Shown in pieces: positions 1-12,261 of a DNA stretch of 64,000 bases; position 1 is the stretch's first letter, and each line of letters begins with the position of its first letter. The notes under the pieces were generated by a model. That model did not search any database, was not told the DNA's origin, and saw nothing but the letters and a program-made list of their open reading frames with translations. A program made the position numbers and the translations under genes. The stretch comes from a bacterium (GTDB taxonomy: Bacteria > Sysuimicrobiota > Sysuimicrobiia > Sysuimicrobiales > Humicultoraceae). Where the stretch lies: NCBI GenBank assembly GCA_041497675.1, contig JBGQGY010000003.1, forward strand, positions 335-64,334. The letters run 5' to 3'.

Positions 1-908
1 TTGTCCTCCCCCACCAGCCCCAACCGGTCGATGCCCACCAGCGCGGCCCGCTTGTCCAGGATCCGCATCACGACCTTCTCGCCGAAGACCGTCGGGATCG
101 TCGAGACCCGCAGGTCGATCTCCCGGCCGTCGACGCGCAGTTCGATGCGGCCGTCCTGCGGGAGGCGGCGCTCGGCGATGTTCATGTTGGCCATGATCTT
201 GATGCGGCTCACGCCGGCAGCCTGGACGTGCTTGGGCGCCGTCATCACATTGTAGAGCGTGCCGTCGATCCGATAGCGGATCCGTACCTGGTTCTCCTGC
301 GGCTCCACGTGGATGTCACTGGCGCCCTGCCGCACGGCTTGGACCAGCACGAGGTTGACCAGACGCACGACCGGAGCTTCGTCGACGATCTCGCGGAGCT
401 TGTCGAGCCCGGGCTCGTCTTCCCCGACCTCGGACGGCCGGATCTCCTGGATGACCTGATCCAACGAAGTTTCCAGCGCCGGGTACTGGTTGACCGCGTG
501 CAGGAACCCGTCTTGCGTGATGACGGCCGGAATGAGGTCGCGGTCGGCGATGCGGCGGATGTCATCCAGCGCCAGCACATCGAGCGGATCGACCATCCCG
601 AGCACGAGCGCTTCGCCTTCGGCGCGCAACGGTAGCACCTGATAGCGGCGGATCGCCTGCTCGGGCAGGATCGTCAGGATGTCCTCGGGGATGGTGGTCG
701 CCTGGACGTTCACGTACTCCATGTTCATCTGACTGGCGATCGCCTTGGCGATCGCCTCCGGCGTCGCCAGACCCATTTTGACCAACACTTTGCCCAGCCG
801 GTCGCCAGTCGCATTCTGGGCCTGCAGTGCCTGCTCCAGCTGCGCCTGGGTAATCAGACCGGCTTCGACCAGGACCTCGCCCAGCCGCACCCGCCGGCGA
901 GCGGTCAT
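1..908 (-). CDS. PilB/GspE-family secretion or type IV pilus assembly ATPase, N-terminal ~300 aa; 3' end runs off the window start
   Basis: Translated the minus strand from ATG at 908-906 by hand: MTARRRVRLGEVLVEAGLITQAQLEQALQ... (T2SSE_N-like) ...LVNLVLVQAVRQGASDIHVEPQENQVRIRYRIDGTLYNV...RIKIMANMNIAERRLPQDGRI...IPTVFGEKVVMRIL. About 65% identical over this stretch to the 3318..5654 paralog. Absent from the ORF track because it has no in-window stop. Confidence 0.85.
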   Translation of the reverse strand, partial: MTARRRVRLGEVLVEAGLITQAQLEQALQAQNATGDRLGKVLVKMGLATPEAIAKAIASQMNMEYVNVQATTIPEDILTILPEQAIRRYQVLPLRAEGEALVLGMVDPLDVLALDDIRRIADRDLIPAVITQDGFLHAVNQYPALETSLDQVIQEIRPSEVGEDEPGLDKLREIVDEAPVVRLVNLVLVQAVRQGASDIHVEPQENQVRIRYRIDGTLYNVMTAPKHVQAAGVSRIKIMANMNIAERRLPQDGRIELRVDGREIDLRVSTIPTVFGEKVVMRILDKRAALVGIDRLGLVGED

Positions 909-912
909 GCCT

Positions 913-1155
913 CTAGATGGTTTCATGACGCTCCATCAGCATGACGACGTGAGCCTTGTGCACCATGACGACGGACGCTTCGTAGAGCAGCCGGCCGTCG
1001 AGGGAGAACACCCGCGCAGACGTGATCGGCAGGAAGTCTTTGGCCGAGTTCAGCCGGTCAGAAATCCGCGCGGTCGAGGGCAGGTGCAGGTCGCCCTCGA
1101 TCCGGTGGTGCGGCGTGAACAGGATGACCTGTTCTCGGTCGAGCTCTGACTTCAT
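913..1155 (-). CDS. small conserved hypothetical protein (~80 aa), translationally coupled between MerR and the GspE ATPase
   Basis: Internal ATG start (MKSELDREQVILFTPHH...KAHVVMLMERHETI) within ORF 913..1263. The ATG overlaps the MerR stop (ATGA arrangement). No family recognised. Confidence 0.5.
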   Translation of the reverse strand: MKSELDREQVILFTPHHRIEGDLHLPSTARISDRLNSAKDFLPITSARVFSLDGRLLYEASVVMVHKAHVVMLMERHETI

Positions 1156-1433
1156 CGACCACTCCCACGGCCGTCCCCGGCCATTTCCACCGGGCGTGTG
1201 CTCTCGATCAACCGCTGGATGCCCTTGAGGCTCATGCCACGATCCACCATGGCCTTGACCCAACGGATGCGTTCGACATCGTCTTCACTATACAGGCGAT
1301 GGCCACCGCCGGTCCGGGCCGGGGAGAGCAGGTTGTACTGGTCCTCCCACGCTCGGATCCGCCGGGGGTTCACCCCGGTCAGGTGCGCGACCGTCCGGAT
1401 CGGATAGATCGGCGCGCGACGGTCCACAATCAT
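1152..1433 (-). CDS. MerR-family HTH transcriptional regulator
   Basis: YPIRTVAHLTGVNPRRIRAWEDQYNLLSPARTGGGHRLYSEDDVERIRWVKAMVDRGMSL matches the MerR N-terminal HTH pattern. Stop/start overlaps with both neighbours. Confidence 0.8.
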   Translation of the reverse strand: MIVDRRAPIYPIRTVAHLTGVNPRRIRAWEDQYNLLSPARTGGGHRLYSEDDVERIRWVKAMVDRGMSLKGIQRLIESTRPVEMAGDGRGSGR

Positions 1434-3007
1434 CGGCTTCCCCCTCCGCTTCCCGCCGCGCGCTGGGCTGTGGCCAGATCACGGTCGCGCGGTGGACCGT
1501 AGCCATGATCGCGCAGGTACGTGTAGATCTCCTGAAGTTTCGAGAACCCGTGAAAGTCGGGGCGATACTCCGATTCGAGCTTGTAGTCCAGTTCGACGTA
1601 CTTGTTCAGCGTCACGAAGAACGCATACTGGACGATGTTGGACGGCGCTTCAGGCGCGTCGCGGTTCTTGTCGATAAAGAGGTTGACGATGTCGACCTTG
1701 GGAAGATCGTCGGTGGCGAACCCCTCGGCCCGCGAGCGCGTCTCGATCAATTGCTGCAGGTCGTGGGTCGCCTTCCAGTCCTTGGCCAGCACCATCGCCA
1801 CGTCCAAGTCGTACTCGAGGTCGCCGGACCCCATGCTGTGGTGCATCGTCGGCCGGTTGAACGGGTTGAAGACCTCGCCTTCCTCCACCGGTCGCTCGTC
1901 GAGCCGACAGCCTTCTTTGTCCAGCGGCGAGATGGCAAAGATCGGGCAGTCGAGTTCGAGGCTCATCTCCGCCAGCGCGGTTGAGATTCGGTCCGTGCGG
2001 CCCTTCGAGTCGTCCAGGTGCTCGGGCAGCGGGATCTTTTGTAGGTAGTCAAAGAAGATGCAGATGTCCTGTGTCTGAAACTCCTGCATCAGGTTGTGGG
2101 CGTGCGCCCTGATCCGATCGAGTGTTTCCTTCCTGCCGGCCTCGACCAAATGCAGGAAGGGCCCGTAACGGGCGAGCTTGGACTGCGCCGAAGCGACTCG
2201 AGGACCGACCGGCCGGCCGTCCGTGTCGGCGCCGATCAAAATCGAGGTCGGGTTGAGACCGGTCTCTTTCGCGATGAGCCGCGCGGCCAAGACGCGCCGG
2301 GTTTGCTCCCACGTGTAATAGAGCACGGGGATCTTGTGGTTGACGGCCACGTGCACGGCCAGATCGAGCGCCAGGTTGGTCTTCCCGCGGCGCGGCGCGC
2401 CGGCAAGGCCATAGTAGAACCCGCGGCGCAGCCCCGAGAGCAGCGTGTTGAGCCGGTCGAAGGGGCTGATCGAAAACCCGAGGATCCCGTCACTGGCCAC
2501 CGGCCGCAATTCCAACAAGGGACTGAACGCCTCCGAGATCGGCGCCACCTGGCGCCGAATACGCCGCCGCTGGATCTCCATCAGATTGTGGACGCAGTCC
2601 GCCGTGAACTGCACGATGTCGGGGTGCTGGCCGTCCTGCCGGTACAGGTACCCACCGATCGATTCGTGGACTTGGCCGAGCAGGTCGCGGCTCTCGCGGG
2701 CTTTCAGCACGTCGACCTGGGCCATCGCCTCCCCGGCGCTCAACGGCGGGTTCTCGATCACGTTGGCCAGATACCGCTCCATCTCAGGCGTCAACAGGCC
2801 GCGGTCGACCAGATGGACGCGCAGGGTGGACTCATCGACGACGGCATCCTGGGCGGCGTAGAGGTCGATGATGACCTTGGCCAGCCGCCGCGCGAGTGGC
2901 GACGCCAGCAGATCAACATGAAACCCCTCCGTCGAGGCAAGGGTAATCAAATGCCGATCGCGGATAAATCCGCTAAGCAGACGGATTTCAATCTGGTACA
3001 GATCCAC
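1430..3007 (-). CDS. atypical DnaB-like helicase C-terminal domain (RecA-fold) ATPase, 525 aa
   Basis: Walker A GLAGAPRRGKTNLALDLAV, DnaB-like Walker B ICIFFDYLQKI, SGDLEYDLDVAMVL (compare DnaB SGSIEQDADVV). Has insertions and a long divergent C-terminal tail. Stop overlaps the MerR start, so it is the first gene of a four-gene minus-strand operon. Confidence 0.7.
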   Translation of the reverse strand: MDLYQIEIRLLSGFIRDRHLITLASTEGFHVDLLASPLARRLAKVIIDLYAAQDAVVDESTLRVHLVDRGLLTPEMERYLANVIENPPLSAGEAMAQVDVLKARESRDLLGQVHESIGGYLYRQDGQHPDIVQFTADCVHNLMEIQRRRIRRQVAPISEAFSPLLELRPVASDGILGFSISPFDRLNTLLSGLRRGFYYGLAGAPRRGKTNLALDLAVHVAVNHKIPVLYYTWEQTRRVLAARLIAKETGLNPTSILIGADTDGRPVGPRVASAQSKLARYGPFLHLVEAGRKETLDRIRAHAHNLMQEFQTQDICIFFDYLQKIPLPEHLDDSKGRTDRISTALAEMSLELDCPIFAISPLDKEGCRLDERPVEEGEVFNPFNRPTMHHSMGSGDLEYDLDVAMVLAKDWKATHDLQQLIETRSRAEGFATDDLPKVDIVNLFIDKNRDAPEAPSNIVQYAFFVTLNKYVELDYKLESEYRPDFHGFSKLQEIYTYLRDHGYGPPRDRDLATAQRAAGSGGGSR

Positions 3008-3192
3008 CGGGCAGTTCCCTCCGATATCGGAAATCGGGGATCGTGCCTGACCCGGACTCAGTCAACCCTCTCGCCGTGAACTTCCCAGGAACCTCTCTGA
3101 CGTTGGCTTGCCTCGGGCATAACCTTGTTGCGATTGTGTTCCAATCTTCATCCGGGCAAGTCAGAATATGCCCAGAAGATTGTGGGGCTAGT

Positions 3193-3275
3193 CACGAACG
3201 GGCAAACCCGGAGCGATTCGGGGGCGCAAAACTACGGGACCGGGGAATATACATACCGGTCCCTGTTTTTCTTGG
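3193..3275 (+). promoter_or_regulatory. c-di-GMP-I (GEMM) riboswitch-like element in the 5' leader of the GspE-family ATPase gene
   Basis: CACGAACGGGCAAACC-CGGA-GCGA-UUCGG-GGGCGCAAAACUACGGG then hairpin ACGGGACCGG-GGAAUAUACAUA-CCGGUCCC followed by UGUUUUUCUU. It has the GGCAAACC box, a GNRA-capped first hairpin and a GCGCAAA(G/A)C junction resembling the Vibrio Vc2 aptamer (GGCAAACC AUUC GAAA GAGU GGGACGCAAAGCC). The second hairpin plus U-tract could act as terminator. Confidence 0.6.
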
Positions 3276-3317
3276 GGCTGCTGCCACATGGCAAAACGGC
3301 ATGGGTGAGGGTACGCA

Positions 3318-5654
3318 TTGGATCGGTCCCCGGACGAAGGCGCCATCCAGACTCTGAAAGCTTCCGTTGGCCTGCCCGCGGAGAGCCTGACGCTCGAACG
3401 GGCTTTCCTTCATGCGGAGGCACGCCAGGCCATGCGGTCCGCACAATGGGAGACCGCGCGCGACGCGCTGCAGCGTCTAGCGGCGGCCGATCCAGAGGAA
3501 CCATGGGTCTGCTGGGACCTGGCGGCGGCGTGCCGGGCGCTCGAGGACCACGAAGGCGCAGCTCTCGCGTATCTGACCGCGGCCGACAAGCACCTGGCCC
3601 GCGGCGAGACCGACCAGGTCCTCCAAGCGTACCAGCAGGCCGCCGCGATCTCGCCAAATGATCCGCAGATTCAAGCCAAGCTGGCGGAACCAGCCCCACC
3701 TCCATCGCAGCCCTCGGCAAGCCGGCCGGCAAACGCTTCACCGCGACCGGCGCCGCCCGCCGCGACCACGTCGCCGGAGACCGGTGCGCGTGCCGTGCCG
3801 GAGCGCAGCGACGCTCCGGTATTGCCAACGCCTCCCGGGCCATCGAAGGCCGACAAGCGAGGGGCGGCGGCGCCCGATGCACCTCCCACACCACCCGCGC
3901 GCGAGCCCGTCGACCCAGCATCCCAGGCGGCGCGGGCACCGCGGCCGCGACTGGGCAGCAAAACCGAGACGCTGGGCCAGGTGCTCCAGCAACTGGGCAT
4001 CATCACCGCCCACCAACTCAACGAATCGCTCGAGATTCAGGCGCGCACCGGCGAGCGCATCGGGCAAATCCTGCGCGACATGGGCGTGATCAGCGACACC
4101 GACCTGGCGCGCGCCATGGCGCACCAGTGGGCCTACCCGTACCTCTCCCTGGCGGAGCGGCGGCCAGATACTGAGATCGTCAGGCTGATCCCGCACGCGC
4201 TGGCGATGCGGCACAAGTGCGTCGCCGTCGAGCGCGCCGGGGGCCGGCTGCTCGTCGCGATCAGTGATCCGCTGAACGTCATCGCCGTCGACGACGTCCG
4301 CCTCATCACCGGCATGGAAGTCGACCTCGCGGTCGCCACCGAAGAAGACATCACCACCGCGCTGGCGCGCGGCTATCAGCTGTCCGACACGACGATTGAG
4401 AAGGTCCTGCGCGAGTCCTTACCCGATTCTGCGGGGGATCTCGGCGATGAGGATGTCTCGATCGAGCAGCTGAAGGCGTTGGTTGAGGAAGCGCCTGTCG
4501 TCAAGCTCGTCAACCTCGTAGTGGATGAGGCGGTCAAGCAAGGCGCCAGCGATATCCACGTCGAGCCGCAGCGCAACGGCGTCTGGGTGCGGTTTCGCGT
4601 GGACGGGGTGCTGCGCGACGTGATGAACCCGCCTAAGCACCTGAAGTCGGCGCTCGTCTCGCGCATGAAGATCATGGCTGAGATGGACATCGCCGAGCGC
4701 CGTCGCCCCCAGGATGGGCGCATCCATCTGATCGCCGATGGCCGCAACATCGACCTGCGCGTCTCGACGCTCCCCACGATGTATGGCGAGAAAATCGTGA
4801 TGCGCATCCTGGATCAAGCCCAGACCATGATCGGGCTGACCCGGCTGGGCTTCCACAGTGATACGCTCCGACAGTGGGAGAGCTCGGTCAGCAAACCCCA
4901 CGGGATGGTGTTGGTCACCGGGCCGACCGGGAGCGGGAAGACGACGACCCTCTACGCCACGCTGAGCAAGCTCAACACGCCCGAACTCAATGTCGTGACG
5001 GTCGAGGACCCCGTCGAGTATCAGATCAGCCGTATCAACCAGGTCCAAGTGAACATTAAAGCCGGCATGACCTTTGCCACCGCGCTCCGGCACATCCTGC
5101 GCCAGGACCCAGACATCGTCATGGTCGGTGAGATCCGCGACAAAGACACGGCCGAGATCGCGGTGCAGGCCGCACTCACCGGCCACTTGGTCCTCTCAAC
5201 GCTCCACACCAACGACGCGGCGGGCGCGGTCACGCGGCTGGTCGACATGGGGGTTGAACCGTTCCTGATCAGCTCGTCGGTCATTGGGGTGCTGGCGCAG
5301 CGTCTCGCCCGGGCCATCTGCTCCCGTTGCAAGGTCGCCTACTCGCCGCCACCCGAAGCGCTCGGCCGTCTCGGTGCGGATGTGCGAATCGATTCCGATG
5401 TGACCTTCTATAGAGGCCAAGGCTGCGAGTCGTGCCGCGGCACCGGTTACCGCGGTCGGATCGGCATCTTCGAACTGCTGATCATCAGTGACGCCGTCCG
5501 CGACCTGGTTGTCCACAACGCCTCCTCCACCGAGATCAAGGCGCAGGCGATCCGTGAGGGCATGCGCACGCTGCGGGATGACGGCCTCGAGAAAGTCATG
5601 TCCGGCATCTCCACCATCGACGAGATCCTGCGGGTCGTGTACGTCCAGGACTGA
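3318..5654 (+). CDS. PilB/GspE-family ATPase with N-terminal TPR-like domain and Pro/Ala-rich linker (778 aa)
   Basis: T2SSE_N-like region (LGQVLQQLGIITAHQL...), Walker A GPTGSGKTT, Asp box, Walker B DPDIVMVGEIRD, His box LVLSTLHTND, tetracysteine CSRC...CESC. TTG start at 3318; ATG at 3432 is an alternative. N-terminal ~100 aa TPR-like, then low-complexity P/A-rich segment. Confidence 0.9.
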   Translation: MDRSPDEGAIQTLKASVGLPAESLTLERAFLHAEARQAMRSAQWETARDALQRLAAADPEEPWVCWDLAAACRALEDHEGAALAYLTAADKHLARGETDQVLQAYQQAAAISPNDPQIQAKLAEPAPPPSQPSASRPANASPRPAPPAATTSPETGARAVPERSDAPVLPTPPGPSKADKRGAAAPDAPPTPPAREPVDPASQAARAPRPRLGSKTETLGQVLQQLGIITAHQLNESLEIQARTGERIGQILRDMGVISDTDLARAMAHQWAYPYLSLAERRPDTEIVRLIPHALAMRHKCVAVERAGGRLLVAISDPLNVIAVDDVRLITGMEVDLAVATEEDITTALARGYQLSDTTIEKVLRESLPDSAGDLGDEDVSIEQLKALVEEAPVVKLVNLVVDEAVKQGASDIHVEPQRNGVWVRFRVDGVLRDVMNPPKHLKSALVSRMKIMAEMDIAERRRPQDGRIHLIADGRNIDLRVSTLPTMYGEKIVMRILDQAQTMIGLTRLGFHSDTLRQWESSVSKPHGMVLVTGPTGSGKTTTLYATLSKLNTPELNVVTVEDPVEYQISRINQVQVNIKAGMTFATALRHILRQDPDIVMVGEIRDKDTAEIAVQAALTGHLVLSTLHTNDAAGAVTRLVDMGVEPFLISSSVIGVLAQRLARAICSRCKVAYSPPPEALGRLGADVRIDSDVTFYRGQGCESCRGTGYRGRIGIFELLIISDAVRDLVVHNASSTEIKAQAIREGMRTLRDDGLEKVMSGISTIDEILRVVYVQD

Positions 5655-5698
5655 TCTCGACGGGTCGACGGGGCGGACGAGCCCGTGGTCAAAAGGAT

Positions 5699-5738
5699 GA
5701 GGAGCCGGCGCGGTCACGCCGGCTCCTCGGTGTTGTGT
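5699..5738. terminator. bidirectional intrinsic terminator between convergent genes
   Basis: GAGGAGCCGGCG-cggtca-CGCCGGCTCCTC 12-bp stem followed by GGTGTTGTGT on plus, with CCTTTT on the minus side. Confidence 0.6.
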
Positions 5739-5747
5739 AGAGCGCCG

Positions 5748-6104
5748 CTAGACGAGCGCGGCAGCCAGCTGGCTGTTACGCCGCATCTCCAACCGGATGC
5801 GACCGAGATTGGCCTGTTTGCCGCCGACGACCACCATCATGGCGTCGGGGCCCGCCGGGCCGACCGCGATCGGACCGTCATCGTACTCGAGCAACATGCT
5901 GCGCATCGCCCCCCGGCTCATTTCGCGTCCCATCGAATCCGCCGCGGCCATGCTGCTGGCCACGATGGCGCCAACGGCCTCCAGGTCGATGGCCTCTTCA
6001 CTCGTCATCCCCTCGACGACAAACCCATCCCGGCCAACGACCAGGACGGCGACGACCCCCTCGACTTTGGCCAGGTCGCTGATGACATCCTTCAGCTGCG
6101 ACAT
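5748..6104 (-). CDS. Roadblock/LC7 (MglB-like) domain protein
   Basis: MSQLKDVISDLAKVEGVVAVLVVGRDGFVVEG...AIDLEAVGAIVASSMAAADSMG...MMVVVGGKQANLGRIRLEMRR matches the Roadblock/LC7 pattern. Internal ATG at 6104 with upstream AGGAGGGGAA; the longer ORF 5748..6248 is an antisense-style extension. Confidence 0.8.
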   Translation of the reverse strand: MSQLKDVISDLAKVEGVVAVLVVGRDGFVVEGMTSEEAIDLEAVGAIVASSMAAADSMGREMSRGAMRSMLLEYDDGPIAVGPAGPDAMMVVVGGKQANLGRIRLEMRRNSQLAAALV

Positions 6105-6153
6105 CGTGCGTTCCCCTCCTACTCCAGAGTTCCGGCCCTCTAGCGTCCGGGAG

Positions 6154-6969
6154 CTACAGTGTTCCGTGCGACGGTACGCCCATGACACCCCGCAGTTTGG
6201 TGAGCGCTGAGGCCAGCACCCGCGAGACATGTTTCTGCGAGATGCCAATTCTCTTTGAGGCTTCGGTCTGGGTGAGATCGGTGTAGAACAGGTAGTAGAC
6301 GACCTTGCGCTGTAGCGAGTTCAGGGATTCCATCGCTTCGACCAGCATCACGCGATCTTCTATGGGTAACTGGAAGCTGATGTGGGATCGGTGCTTGATG
6401 CGCTCTCGGTCGACGCGCAGGTCGCCGCCCTCTTCTTCGGTCTCAAGGGAGATCGTCCGGAGGGCCTCACGGGTACGCAGCACCTCGAGCAGCCCTTCCT
6501 CTTCGATATTGAGCTCGGAGGCCAGCTCTTCCAGCCCGGGAAACCGCCCCTCTTCCGCAACGTATTTGCCGACGGTGTCCTCGATCTGGGTGTTGAGCTT
6601 CTGCAGCCAGCGCGGTTTCCGAATCGTGTCGCGCTGATCCCGCAGGTAATGGCGGATCTCGCCGCGGACCAGATAGCTCGCGTACGTCGCGAACTTCGCG
6701 CCCCGCGTCGGATCGAAGGCCGCGATGGCATTGAGCAACCCGATGTACCCCACCTGCACGAGATCGTCGGTCGGAACACCCGAGAACACAAATTCTGAGG
6801 CGATGCGCCGCACCAGCGGCGTGCACGCGTGGACGACTCGTTCTCGGATCGCTGGGTCGGGGCTCTCGACGTACTGGGCCATCAATACATCTTCGTTCTC
6901 GTGCTCGGTCACACGGGGTGTGATCTGCTCTTGTCGAACCGGTGCGCGTTGCGCGCTGCGGACTGCCAT
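6154..6969 (-). CDS. RNA polymerase sigma factor, sigma-70 family group 3 (SigB/SigF/FliA-like)
   Basis: Region 2 DLVQVGYIGLLNAIAAFDPTRGAKFATYASYLVRGEIRHYLRD; region 4 HTH LTQTEASKRIGISQKHVSRVLASALTKLR. GGAGG lies 6 nt upstream of the ATG at 6969. Confidence 0.85.
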   Translation of the reverse strand: MAVRSAQRAPVRQEQITPRVTEHENEDVLMAQYVESPDPAIRERVVHACTPLVRRIASEFVFSGVPTDDLVQVGYIGLLNAIAAFDPTRGAKFATYASYLVRGEIRHYLRDQRDTIRKPRWLQKLNTQIEDTVGKYVAEEGRFPGLEELASELNIEEEGLLEVLRTREALRTISLETEEEGGDLRVDRERIKHRSHISFQLPIEDRVMLVEAMESLNSLQRKVVYYLFYTDLTQTEASKRIGISQKHVSRVLASALTKLRGVMGVPSHGTL

Positions 6970-7031: not shown

Positions 7032-7110
7032 CCCTTCGGCAGCCCGGCCAACCGTGACGGTCCCGGAGCTTTGCGCCCCCACCTTGCGATGGGTTTGCCC
7101 TTTCGAGGAT
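7032..7110 (-). promoter_or_regulatory. c-di-GMP-I (GEMM) riboswitch-like aptamer A, leader of the sigma factor/Roadblock operon
   Basis: Minus-strand RNA: UCGAAAGGGCAAACC-CAUC-GCAA-GGUGGGG-GCGCAAAGCUCCGGGACCGUCACGGUUGGCCGGGCUGCCGAAGGG. GGCAAACC box, GCAA GNRA-capped hairpin, GCGCAAAGC junction. About 85% identical to element B at 12046..12140. Confidence 0.7.
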
Positions 7111-12045: not shown

Positions 12046-12140
12046 TGCCCCTTCGGCAACCCGGCCGGCCGCGCGGTTGGACGTCCCGCGCGCCCCCGTG
12101 GCTTTGCGTCCCCACCTTGCGATGGGTTTGCCCGTTCGGA
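12046..12140 (-). promoter_or_regulatory. c-di-GMP-I (GEMM) riboswitch-like aptamer B, leader of the SBP/DUF4388/7TM operon
   Basis: Minus-strand RNA: CCGAACGGGCAAACC-CAUC-GCAA-GGUGGGG-ACGCAAAGCCACGGGGGCGCGCGGGACGUCCAACCGCGCGGCCGGCCGGGUUGCCGAAGGGG. It has the GGCAAACC box, a GNRA-capped hairpin and GGGACGCAAAGCC, which matches the Vc2 junction exactly. Confidence 0.75.
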
Positions 12141-12261
12141 GGCTCTATGCAGTTTGCGGTGCTACCTTTTCTCTACCCCGCCGCGGCTTCGCCTAGACCT
12201 CTGCCTACCCTCCAACAGATGTCCCGAGAGTTGCGGCAGGGTTCCTCCAAGAAGCCATACG

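Follow-up and report, generated by a model that had tools for sequence, protein, structure and literature searches.

A truncated descendant of a c-di-GMP-I riboswitch that probably acts as a ligand-independent leader terminator of an MshEN-type ATPase gene

The closest known relatives of the element studied here are the c-di-GMP-I riboswitches (GEMM-I, RF01051, clan CL00126), which respond to cyclic di-guanosine monophosphate (c-di-GMP). Among transcriptional OFF designs, in which the ligand leads to termination, Cd1 of Clostridioides difficile has been studied best, and Cd1 transcripts ending before the pairing cytosine bind c-di-GMP with a dissociation constant (KD) of 35 µM to >100 µM, compared with 0.25 µM when it is present (PMC9262584). 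Vc2 loses binding without P1 (PMC9262584), and its response is severely weakened by the C92U exchange (bioRxiv 10.1101/617340). Here we analyse a bacterial locus in a 64,000-nt stretch of contig JBGQGY010000003.1 (assembly GCA_041497675.1, positions 335 to 64,334 of the forward strand; hereafter the window, numbered from its first letter), where an earlier note, made from the letters alone, had described a c-di-GMP riboswitch in front of a gene for a GspE/PilB-family ATPase. The RNA quoted in that note was found by direct reading at 3193-3273 (+). Comparison with orthologous leaders indicates that this element is a truncated descendant of a c-di-GMP-I riboswitch that now probably works as a ligand-independent leader terminator.

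Along the plus strand, the element consists of GGGCAAAC, a first hairpin (CCCGGA-GCGA-UUCGGG), GGCGCAAAA, a second hairpin (GGGACCGG-N12-CCGGUCCC) and, directly 3' of it, UGUUUUUCUU. Its parts were placed with the Rfam models, with a clade model (R1) built from 12 intact aptamers, and by alignment with orthologous loci, which came from genome contigs (L001), from contigs encoding protein matches (L081-L086) and from metagenomes scanned with the TPR domain of the ATPase (L087-L104). The aptamer structure of the intact relatives is backed by covariation, since 96% of the pair cells in R1 are standard and eight pairs change on both sides. The closest intact relative is L088, which is 85% identical to the window in the TPR domain. 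The features are as follows.

3164..3193, plus strand: conserved promoter-proximal/5' leader block (GAATATGCCC, 18 nt, CTAGTC)
3201, plus strand: equivalent of the ligand-contact G20, kept; in the Rfam and R1 models it falls on the unpaired G that precedes the GC closing pair
3202..3227, plus strand: first aptamer hairpin, intact in the Rfam and R1 alignments and in the minimum free energy (MFE) and centroid folds
3228, plus strand: equivalent of the intercalating A47, kept; aligns to CGC-A-AA of the models
3236..3263, plus strand: distal second aptamer helix, now a terminator-like stem (8 bp, GGGACCGG/CCGGUCCC, 12-nt AT-rich loop)
3260..3261, plus strand: deletion junction, placed to within a few nt by four-way alignment A5 against L088
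3264..3273, plus strand: U-tract UGUUUUUCUU, homologous to the ancestral terminator U-tract; aligns with CGCUUUUCC of L088
3307..3311, plus strand: GAGGG of Shine-Dalgarno type, seen on direct reading, 6 nt ahead of the start codon
3318-5654, plus strand: ATPase gene from the open reading frame list, 778 aa, TTG start, beginning 44 nt past the U-tract

The window and L088 are nearly identical in the promoter-proximal region, the 5' half of the aptamer and the distal hairpin, including its 12-nt loop. After …ACCGGU, however, L088 continues with the canonical 3' strand (UGGCCGAGUCGCCGAAG), a spacer, the terminator stem GCGGCCUC…GAGGCCGC and AUCGCUUUUCC, whereas in the window and in two further loci, L081 (from ENA, ERZ27254851) and L087 (from JGI, Ga0209431), …ACCGGU is joined directly to CCCUGUUUUUCUU (alignment A5). 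About 62 nt of L088, the block TGGCCGAGTCGCCGAAGACGCCTCAGGTGTAGCTCCGTCTGCGGCCTCCCTCGGCGAGGCCG, are absent from these three, and with them the second helix's basal 3' strand, the C equivalent to C92, the 3' strand of P1, the antiterminator and the original terminator stem. Identity between the window and L088 is 94-100% over 3000-3250 (100% over 3150-3199) and drops from 96-100% to 66% just past the junction; in the flanking coding sequence it is 68-90%. Since the junction is the same in three independent assemblies, it is not an assembly artefact, and the compact form is derived, as all other orthologous aptamers are complete. The U-tract left behind also aligns with the U-tracts 5' of UUGGGCAUA in L001, L085, L086, L089 and L091. 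The Shine-Dalgarno-like site is kept on both sides of the event, as GAGG in L088 and GAGGG in L081 and L087.

Two other readings were considered and rejected. A pairwise MAFFT alignment with L001 had set GGGGCTGCTGCC of the window on the 3' strand of the L001 terminator, but the wider comparison anchors the U-tract and (C)TTGGG instead. The AAAAC run did not evolve to pair with the U-tract, as it is already present in L088 and there pairs with AGU.

Covariance models point to the same history. At Rfam gathering thresholds, neither the scan of the whole window nor the local one gave a match at 3192-3274, so that the element fails the search with RF01051 which the earlier note had named as its own refuting test, and fails it for every other Rfam model. 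With permissive filters in a 401-nt scan, the best model of the clan was RF03168 (c-di-GMP-I-UAU), which needs 65.9 bits and gave 36.2 (E=3e-6), while RF01051 scored lower than RF03168 and under its own 35-bit cut-off. The RF03168 alignment is good in the 5' half and broken in the 3' half. The descent from c-di-GMP-I nevertheless holds, given this E-value, a score of 64 bits on R1 and the ~97% identity of the 5' 70 nt to the complete aptamer of L088; judged by sequence and model score, the resemblance clearly lies far beyond chance. On R1 the intact copies score 72-97 bits (L088 94), the window 64, L081 and L087 60.6 and the leader of L086 37.7, and there is no R1 match in L085 or in the distant (~40%-identity) clade. 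We rejected an identity as a UAU variant because position 20 is G, not U, and because the 3' U's are the terminator tract left by the deletion; RF03168 scores best since it calls for U, not C, past the second helix. A sub-threshold match to this variant can thus mean truncation and not altered ligand specificity, which is a caution for annotation.

The first hairpin has everything expected of an aptamer of this class: a GNRA tetraloop (GCGA, 3213-3216) on a stem of 3207-3212/3217-3222, the conserved GC…GC closing pairs (G3202-C3227 and C3203-G3226), the GCAAAC and G(A/G)CGC flanks, and no mismatch to the Rfam or R1 models; its pairs covary among the 12 intact relatives. The ligand-contact positions G20 and A47 are occupied by G3201 and A3228, although the MFE fold pairs A3228-C3232 with G3265-U3269, so that A3228 is predicted to be bound to the U-tract. 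The rest of the aptamer is defective. The basal 3' strand of the second helix (CCGGGCU) is missing (alignments A5 and A7), bases of the U-tract stand in for it, and two of the seven basal pairs are non-standard in the R1 alignment. The GC that carried the pairing cytosine (C92 in Vc2, C87 in Cd1) is deleted; the Rfam register gives U at this position, and the R1 register gives C3271, which lies within the U-tract and is not a conserved feature. No complement to 3189-3199 occurs downstream of the hairpin to form P1, for which L001 has UCUCG/CGAGA; P1 is required in Vc2, absent in Cd1 and outside the RF01051 model. The window leader also shows no mutually exclusive folds that could act as a switching platform. 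As the gathering score, the second helix, the pairing cytosine and the platform all fall short, the element should not be filed in the c-di-GMP-I family. By analogy with the published Cd1 truncations, we would predict a large loss of affinity in the window RNA (PMC9262584).

What the deletion created has the form of an intrinsic terminator: an 8-bp stem with seven G-C pairs, followed directly by UGUUUUUCUU with 7 U in 10 nt. The hairpin at 3236-3263 has a folding energy of -16.0 kcal/mol, comparable to the -16.7 to -22.6 kcal/mol of the terminators of the intact relatives, an ensemble probability of 0.997 and a penalty of 12.8 kcal/mol if it is forbidden, and folds of the nascent RNA of the window leader gave nothing that competes with it. 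The earlier impression that the second hairpin and its U run look like an intrinsic terminator is borne out by these values, but the hairpin does not double as a terminator by design, because the ~62-nt deletion relative to L088 made it so. In nascent folds of L001, L089 and L083, by contrast with the window, the 3' strand of the aptamer (CGGGCUGC) and the 5' strand of the terminator (GCGGCCCG) form an 8-bp antiterminator, and the terminator forms once the transcript is complete; the window has lost both strands of the antiterminator. The OFF logic proposed before is therefore supported by terminator and antiterminator folds for intact orthologs and fails for the window copy, where ligand binding has nothing to switch, there being neither an antiterminator nor a competing fold.

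We propose the following sequence. In the ancestral arrangement, which relatives still have, the aptamer 3' strand either closes the ligand pocket or pairs with the 5' strand of the terminator as an antiterminator; with c-di-GMP bound, the terminator forms and the ATPase gene is off. A single deletion of ~62 nt then fused the stable distal hairpin of the aptamer to the old U-tract. The window leader would now terminate transcription in vivo regardless of c-di-GMP, as though locked with the ligand bound, leaving read-through transcripts as the only source of the ATPase.

The gene itself has not decayed. Between the window and L087, both of the compact form, the number of synonymous substitutions per synonymous site (dS) is 0.157 and the ratio of non-synonymous to synonymous rates (dN/dS) is 0.15 over 621 codons; between the window and L088, the values are 0.87 and 0.11 over 617 codons. 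The ATPase has been kept under purifying selection since the deletion, so its expression must continue, presumably by read-through, which fits a long-looped terminator of moderate strength. Decay to a pseudogene was considered on account of a TAG at codon 247 of L081 and rejected, as L087 has GAG there, with a frame open over 626 codons and the dN/dS given above. The L081 exchange (GAG→TAG at 1832-1834, ~window 4056-4058) lies in the ARTGE spacer of the MshEN domain and is absent in the near-identical L087 (dS 0.017); it is a private variant or an assembly error.

Several results weigh against a ligand-independent terminator and are taken together here. The dN/dS of 0.15 means that the leader cannot block transcription tightly. 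A consensus terminator scan did not call the site, and a 12-nt loop is long for an efficient terminator; the scan missed the hairpin because this loop exceeds its 3-8 nt range. Folds of L088, the closest intact relative, gave no clear antiterminator. The leader also keeps G20, A47 and the GNRA hairpin, along with a C that one possible register places at C92. Finally, we compared the leader with four-fold degenerate sites, at which the window and L087 differ by 9.4%, using L088 as the outgroup. The whole leader has 5 substitutions where 13.4 were expected (P=0.006), a rate ~2.5 times slower than at four-fold sites, and the 84-nt element has 3 where 7.9 were expected (P=0.04), with none on the window lineage (~4 expected). 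The leader is thus still under some constraint, which might extend to the 5' half of the aptamer. Taken alone, this half has 2 substitutions against 4.1 expected, a difference that is not significant in a test of low power. All three substitutions in the element fell on the branch of L081 and L087: A3204C, one of the two in the 5' half, hits a column that is invariant in 12 of 12 intact aptamers and speaks for a relic; C3232U leaves a wobble pair in the extended stem; and one lies in the loop. Possible remaining selection on the 5' half is the main limit on our confidence that the element is a relic.

The alternative that survives best, although we consider it unlikely, is that the 5' half has taken on another role in read-through transcripts, as a weak c-di-GMP binder, a protein-binding site or a 5' stabiliser with an influence on translation or the stability of the mRNA, or that the DNA here serves a divergent promoter. 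It would account for the island of 94-100% identity to L088 over 3000-3250 amid coding sequence at 68-90%, for the 12-nt AT-rich loop shared with L088 despite a dS of 0.87, for the retention of GGGCA-N10-TGCCC and CTAGTC even in orthologs without an aptamer, and for the presence of a MerR-family gene in the divergent operon. However, neither a specific partner nor a motif came to light, the time that the leader spent as an intact riboswitch before the deletion can explain the conservation, and since then constraint on the 5' half alone has not been significant.

The inverted repeat GGGCA-N10-TGCCC lies at 3155-3174 and overlaps GAATATGCCC, with the CTAGTC box ~18-20 nt further downstream. The GAATATGCCC/CTAGTC block and the repeat occur in every orthologous leader, including the aptamer-less L082, L084, L097 and L103. 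A sigma-70 promoter scan of 2900-3600 found no site, though such a scan is uninformative for this phylum. With a MerR-family gene in the divergent operon, the block at 3155-3193 could be an operator or an unusual promoter.

The loop of the second hairpin (3244-3255, GGAAUAUACAUA) is the same in the window and L088 although dS in the adjacent gene is 0.87, and it holds the hexamer GAATAT, which is repeated at 3164-3169 in the conserved upstream block. The corresponding loops of the other orthologs are GC-rich and unrelated to it. An internal promoter or a protein-binding site was considered for this loop.

Likewise unlikely is the view that the compact element still works as an OFF switch for c-di-GMP, with the second aptamer helix itself as the terminator stem and termination raised by the ligand. 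All signature nucleotides of the 5' half are kept (G3201, GCAAAC, the GNRA hairpin and A3228), A·U pairs between the A-run and the U-tract are possible, C3271 stands at a possible C92 register, and the element evolves more slowly than four-fold sites (3 against 7.9 substitutions, P=0.04). The missing P1 need not count against a switch, since it is not universally needed, as Cd1 shows (PMC9262584). Against this, every Rfam gathering score failed, and the hairpin needs no ligand for its stability and lacks an antiterminator partner, so there is no second state. A3204C, moreover, arose in the sister lineage at an otherwise invariant position. In intrinsic termination, a base inside the U-tract is still held in the RNA-DNA hybrid of the polymerase when the decision falls. 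The putative 3' strand of the pocket is the U-tract itself and would not yet be clear of the polymerase at that moment, so C3271, lying within it, presumably could not sense the ligand in time. In addition, binding by Cd1 RNAs is 100- to 400-fold weaker when truncation has removed the pairing C (PMC9262584). We hold it to be just as improbable that the compact element is a selected minimal derivative of the riboswitch, in which G3201, A3228 and perhaps C3271 bind c-di-GMP on paused or read-through transcripts and tune termination, mRNA stability or translation without an antiterminator, or, in a related form of the idea, that the family has repeatedly hard-wired its OFF switch into an attenuator (three independent events) as MshEN took over the sensing.

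An artefact or scar, that is, a deletion that is an assembly error or a hairpin that does not terminate in a constitutive leader, is very improbable: although all data come from metagenome assemblies, the 12-nt-loop site was not called by the terminator scan and the gene is clearly expressed enough for selection to hold, the identical junction stands in three independent assemblies of different source, a GC-rich stem of -16 kcal/mol is directly followed by 7 U in 10 nt, and a hairpin and U-tract are kept in every orthologous leader without the sensor.

The reading of the window element as a ligand-independent terminator descended from a riboswitch gains a wider setting from the orthologous leaders. 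Complete aptamers stand at the syntenic site in eight Armatimonadota leaders (L001, L083 and L088-L093), and the collected leaders fall into the following states.

L001 (52.3 bits on RF01051) and L089 (56.6 bits): complete aptamer
L088, L090, L091, L092 and L093 (53-54 bits on RF03167) and L083 (40 bits): complete aptamer
L081 (ENA) and L087 (JGI): compact form as in the window
L086: aptamer-like with a mutated core (GGACAAAC, CGCCAUACC), no Rfam match
L085: hairpin and U-rich tract only
L082, L084 and L096-L103 (the ~40%-identity clade): no aptamer

In L086 (3173-3320), the full-length layout and a strong terminator are kept, while the core is mutated and the A47 position has become C. In L085 (3900-3975), most of the aptamer is lost; what is left is GGUCAAAC-GGGGAGACGCC, which forms a weak hairpin, and GCAUUUUCGCUGUUCUU after it. 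The sensor losses in L085 and L086 are independent of the window deletion and due to different lesions, so that among the orthologs at least three independent routes (the deletion in the window, point mutations in L086 and reduction in L085) have led to a lost sensor with a hairpin and U-tract retained. In L090 (1415-1503) and L093 (641-729), the 3' end of the aptamer runs into the start codon (…GCCGGUGAUGGAC) and there is no terminator, a layout that suggests translational OFF control, while other orthologs use terminators. The aptamers of L083, L088 and L090-L093, together with another riboswitch of the window at 7034-7108 (-), score best on RF03167, the 'GGC' variant, yet in all of them the variant-defining position (CGC-A-AAG) is A and not G; the preference seems to come from the inclusion of P1 and a shorter second helix in that model and not from an altered pocket.

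The gene downstream encodes, as the earlier note had it, a GspE/PilB-family ATPase of 778 aa with a TPR-like N-terminus and a Pro-rich linker (Pfam T2SSE and TPR_14 matches below). The ~330 extra N-terminal residues described there shrink to ~215, however, because residues ~217-356 are an ordinary MshEN/T2SSE_N domain. The protein is laid out as follows.

aa 1-125 (3318-3692), plus strand: TPR domain; TPR_14 at 84-124, 25.7 bits against a cut-off of 23.5
aa 126-216 (3693-3965), plus strand: Pro/Ala-rich linker of variable length, ~90 residues
aa ~217-356 (3966-4385), plus strand: MshEN domain; PF05157 at 272-356, 72.4 bits
aa 390-772 (4485-5633), plus strand: T2SSE ATPase domain in Pfam, 482 bits

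A start at the ATG at 3432 with a promoter of its own, which the earlier note had allowed for, is excluded: every ortholog keeps the peptide (D)EGA(I/L)QTLK…SLTLERAF, beginning at ~codon 6, and translation accordingly starts at the TTG at 3318. The AlphaFold model of residues 1-125 has seven helices with a predicted local distance difference test (pLDDT) score of 90.5, and the domain has three TPR repeats; the top Foldseek matches to it in the PDB are all TPR proteins, at a template modelling (TM) score of only ~0.48. In protein and metagenome searches, relatives of the N-terminal part were found only in metagenome-assembled genomes of Armatimonadota. Residues ~217-360 match PilF (PDB 6F8L), PilB (5ZFR and 5TSG) and MshE (5HTL) in a sequence search. 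MshEN domains bind c-di-GMP through a tandem pair of motifs, each 24 residues long, RLGxx(L/V/I)(L/V/I)xxG(L/V/I)(L/V/I)xxxxLxxxLxxQ, set apart by a 5-residue spacer (Wang et al. 2016, PMC5013675). Neither the strict nor the relaxed published pattern matched the window protein, which deviates at position 1 (T in motif I) and at position 7 (Q and R); with these two positions freed, the motifs lie at 218-241 (TLGQVLQQLGIITAHQLNESLEIQ) and 247-270 (RIGQILRDMGVISDTDLARAMAHQ) with an exact 5-residue spacer, ARTGE. Binding of c-di-GMP by the ATPase is plausible on these sequence grounds.

In the whole-window scan at gathering thresholds, two complete riboswitches of the c-di-GMP-I clan were found elsewhere in the window. 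Signalling by c-di-GMP through riboswitches is thus intact in the genome, and only the ATPase locus is affected by the truncation.

7034-7108, minus strand: complete c-di-GMP-I clan riboswitch (63.5 bits on RF03167) upstream of a sigma-70-family gene
12052-12142, minus strand: complete c-di-GMP-I clan riboswitch (57.5 bits on RF01051) upstream of a Peripla_BP_6 solute-binding gene

The sigma-70-family gene (6154-6969, minus strand) is followed by a Roadblock/LC7 gene (~5748-6248, minus strand), and its riboswitch is syntenic in L001 (5579-5656) and L086 (7043-7117). In a motif comparison, the regions upstream of these two riboswitches shared no motif with the ATPase leader. Between the convergent ATPase and Roadblock genes, a hairpin (GAGGAGCCGGCGCGGTCACGCCGGCTCCTC) followed by GGTGTTGTGT at 5690-5735 is likely a bidirectional terminator. 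Upstream, the ATPase gene borders on a DnaB_C-like gene (1430-3007) on the other strand. The divergent operon to which it belongs (window 1-3007, minus strand) comprises DnaB_C/AAA_25-like, MerR-family and DUF6812 genes and a second ATPase gene of MshEN+T2SSE type, with synteny across L082-L086, and all collected loci keep this DnaB_C–MerR–DUF6812–second MshEN/T2SSE ATPase operon. In the window, the second ATPase gene would fall past the left edge; a single intergenic control region thus lies between two MshEN ATPases.

Catalogues of riboswitches cover intact members, and to our knowledge the loss or rewiring of riboswitches is little documented; our search of the literature for riboswitch remnants and deletion-made terminators, which was limited and is no proof of absence, returned nothing directly comparable. 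The orthologs of this ATPase offer a graded natural series of c-di-GMP-I decay within one gene, from complete OFF switches of the transcriptional or translational kind through a core-mutated copy and a copy with a hairpin and U-tract only to a terminator made by deletion. This series bears on whether the loss of a sensor tends to lock a switch OFF, and the repeated loss of the sensor with hairpin and U-tract kept is its most interesting aspect. In the intact relatives, c-di-GMP may moreover act on one pilus-type motor through both RNA and protein, with expected effects of opposite sign: the RNA would repress synthesis at high c-di-GMP, whereas MshEN activates the protein in characterised homologs and may do so here. 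If true, this would be an incoherent feed-forward arrangement.

Set beside known systems, the protein of this locus resembles the MshE, PilB and PilF ATPases (5HTL, 5ZFR, 6F8L) in having MshEN followed by T2SSE, with two 24-residue motif cores 5 residues apart that deviate from the published patterns at positions 1 and 7, but adds to them a three-repeat TPR domain and a ~90-residue Pro/Ala linker found, in the searches made, only in Armatimonadota. The RNA is homologous to the c-di-GMP-I riboswitches and shares with them the 5' junction (G-GC-AAA), the GNRA first hairpin, the GCGC-AAA junction with the intercalating A and, from the second helix, the 5' strand and the distal part; unlike them, it has no 3' base strand of the second helix, no pairing C, no P1 3' strand and no switching platform, and its score lies below gathering. 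The c-di-GMP-I-UAU family (RF03168) is its best-scoring model, yet position 20 of the element is G. The terminator/antiterminator arrangement of Cd1, in which the ligand leads to termination (PMC9262584), is found in the orthologous leaders and not in the window. The window leader instead resembles an intrinsic leader terminator or attenuator, with a GC-rich 8-bp stem and, directly after it, a U-rich tract, both downstream of the promoter region and ahead of the start codon, and an upstream A-run that can pair with the U-tract. It differs from known attenuators in having no leader peptide, antiterminator or known trans-acting factor, its termination activity being putative, and it differs from the usual intrinsic terminator in a loop of 12 nt, longer than is common, and in a stem recycled from an aptamer helix.

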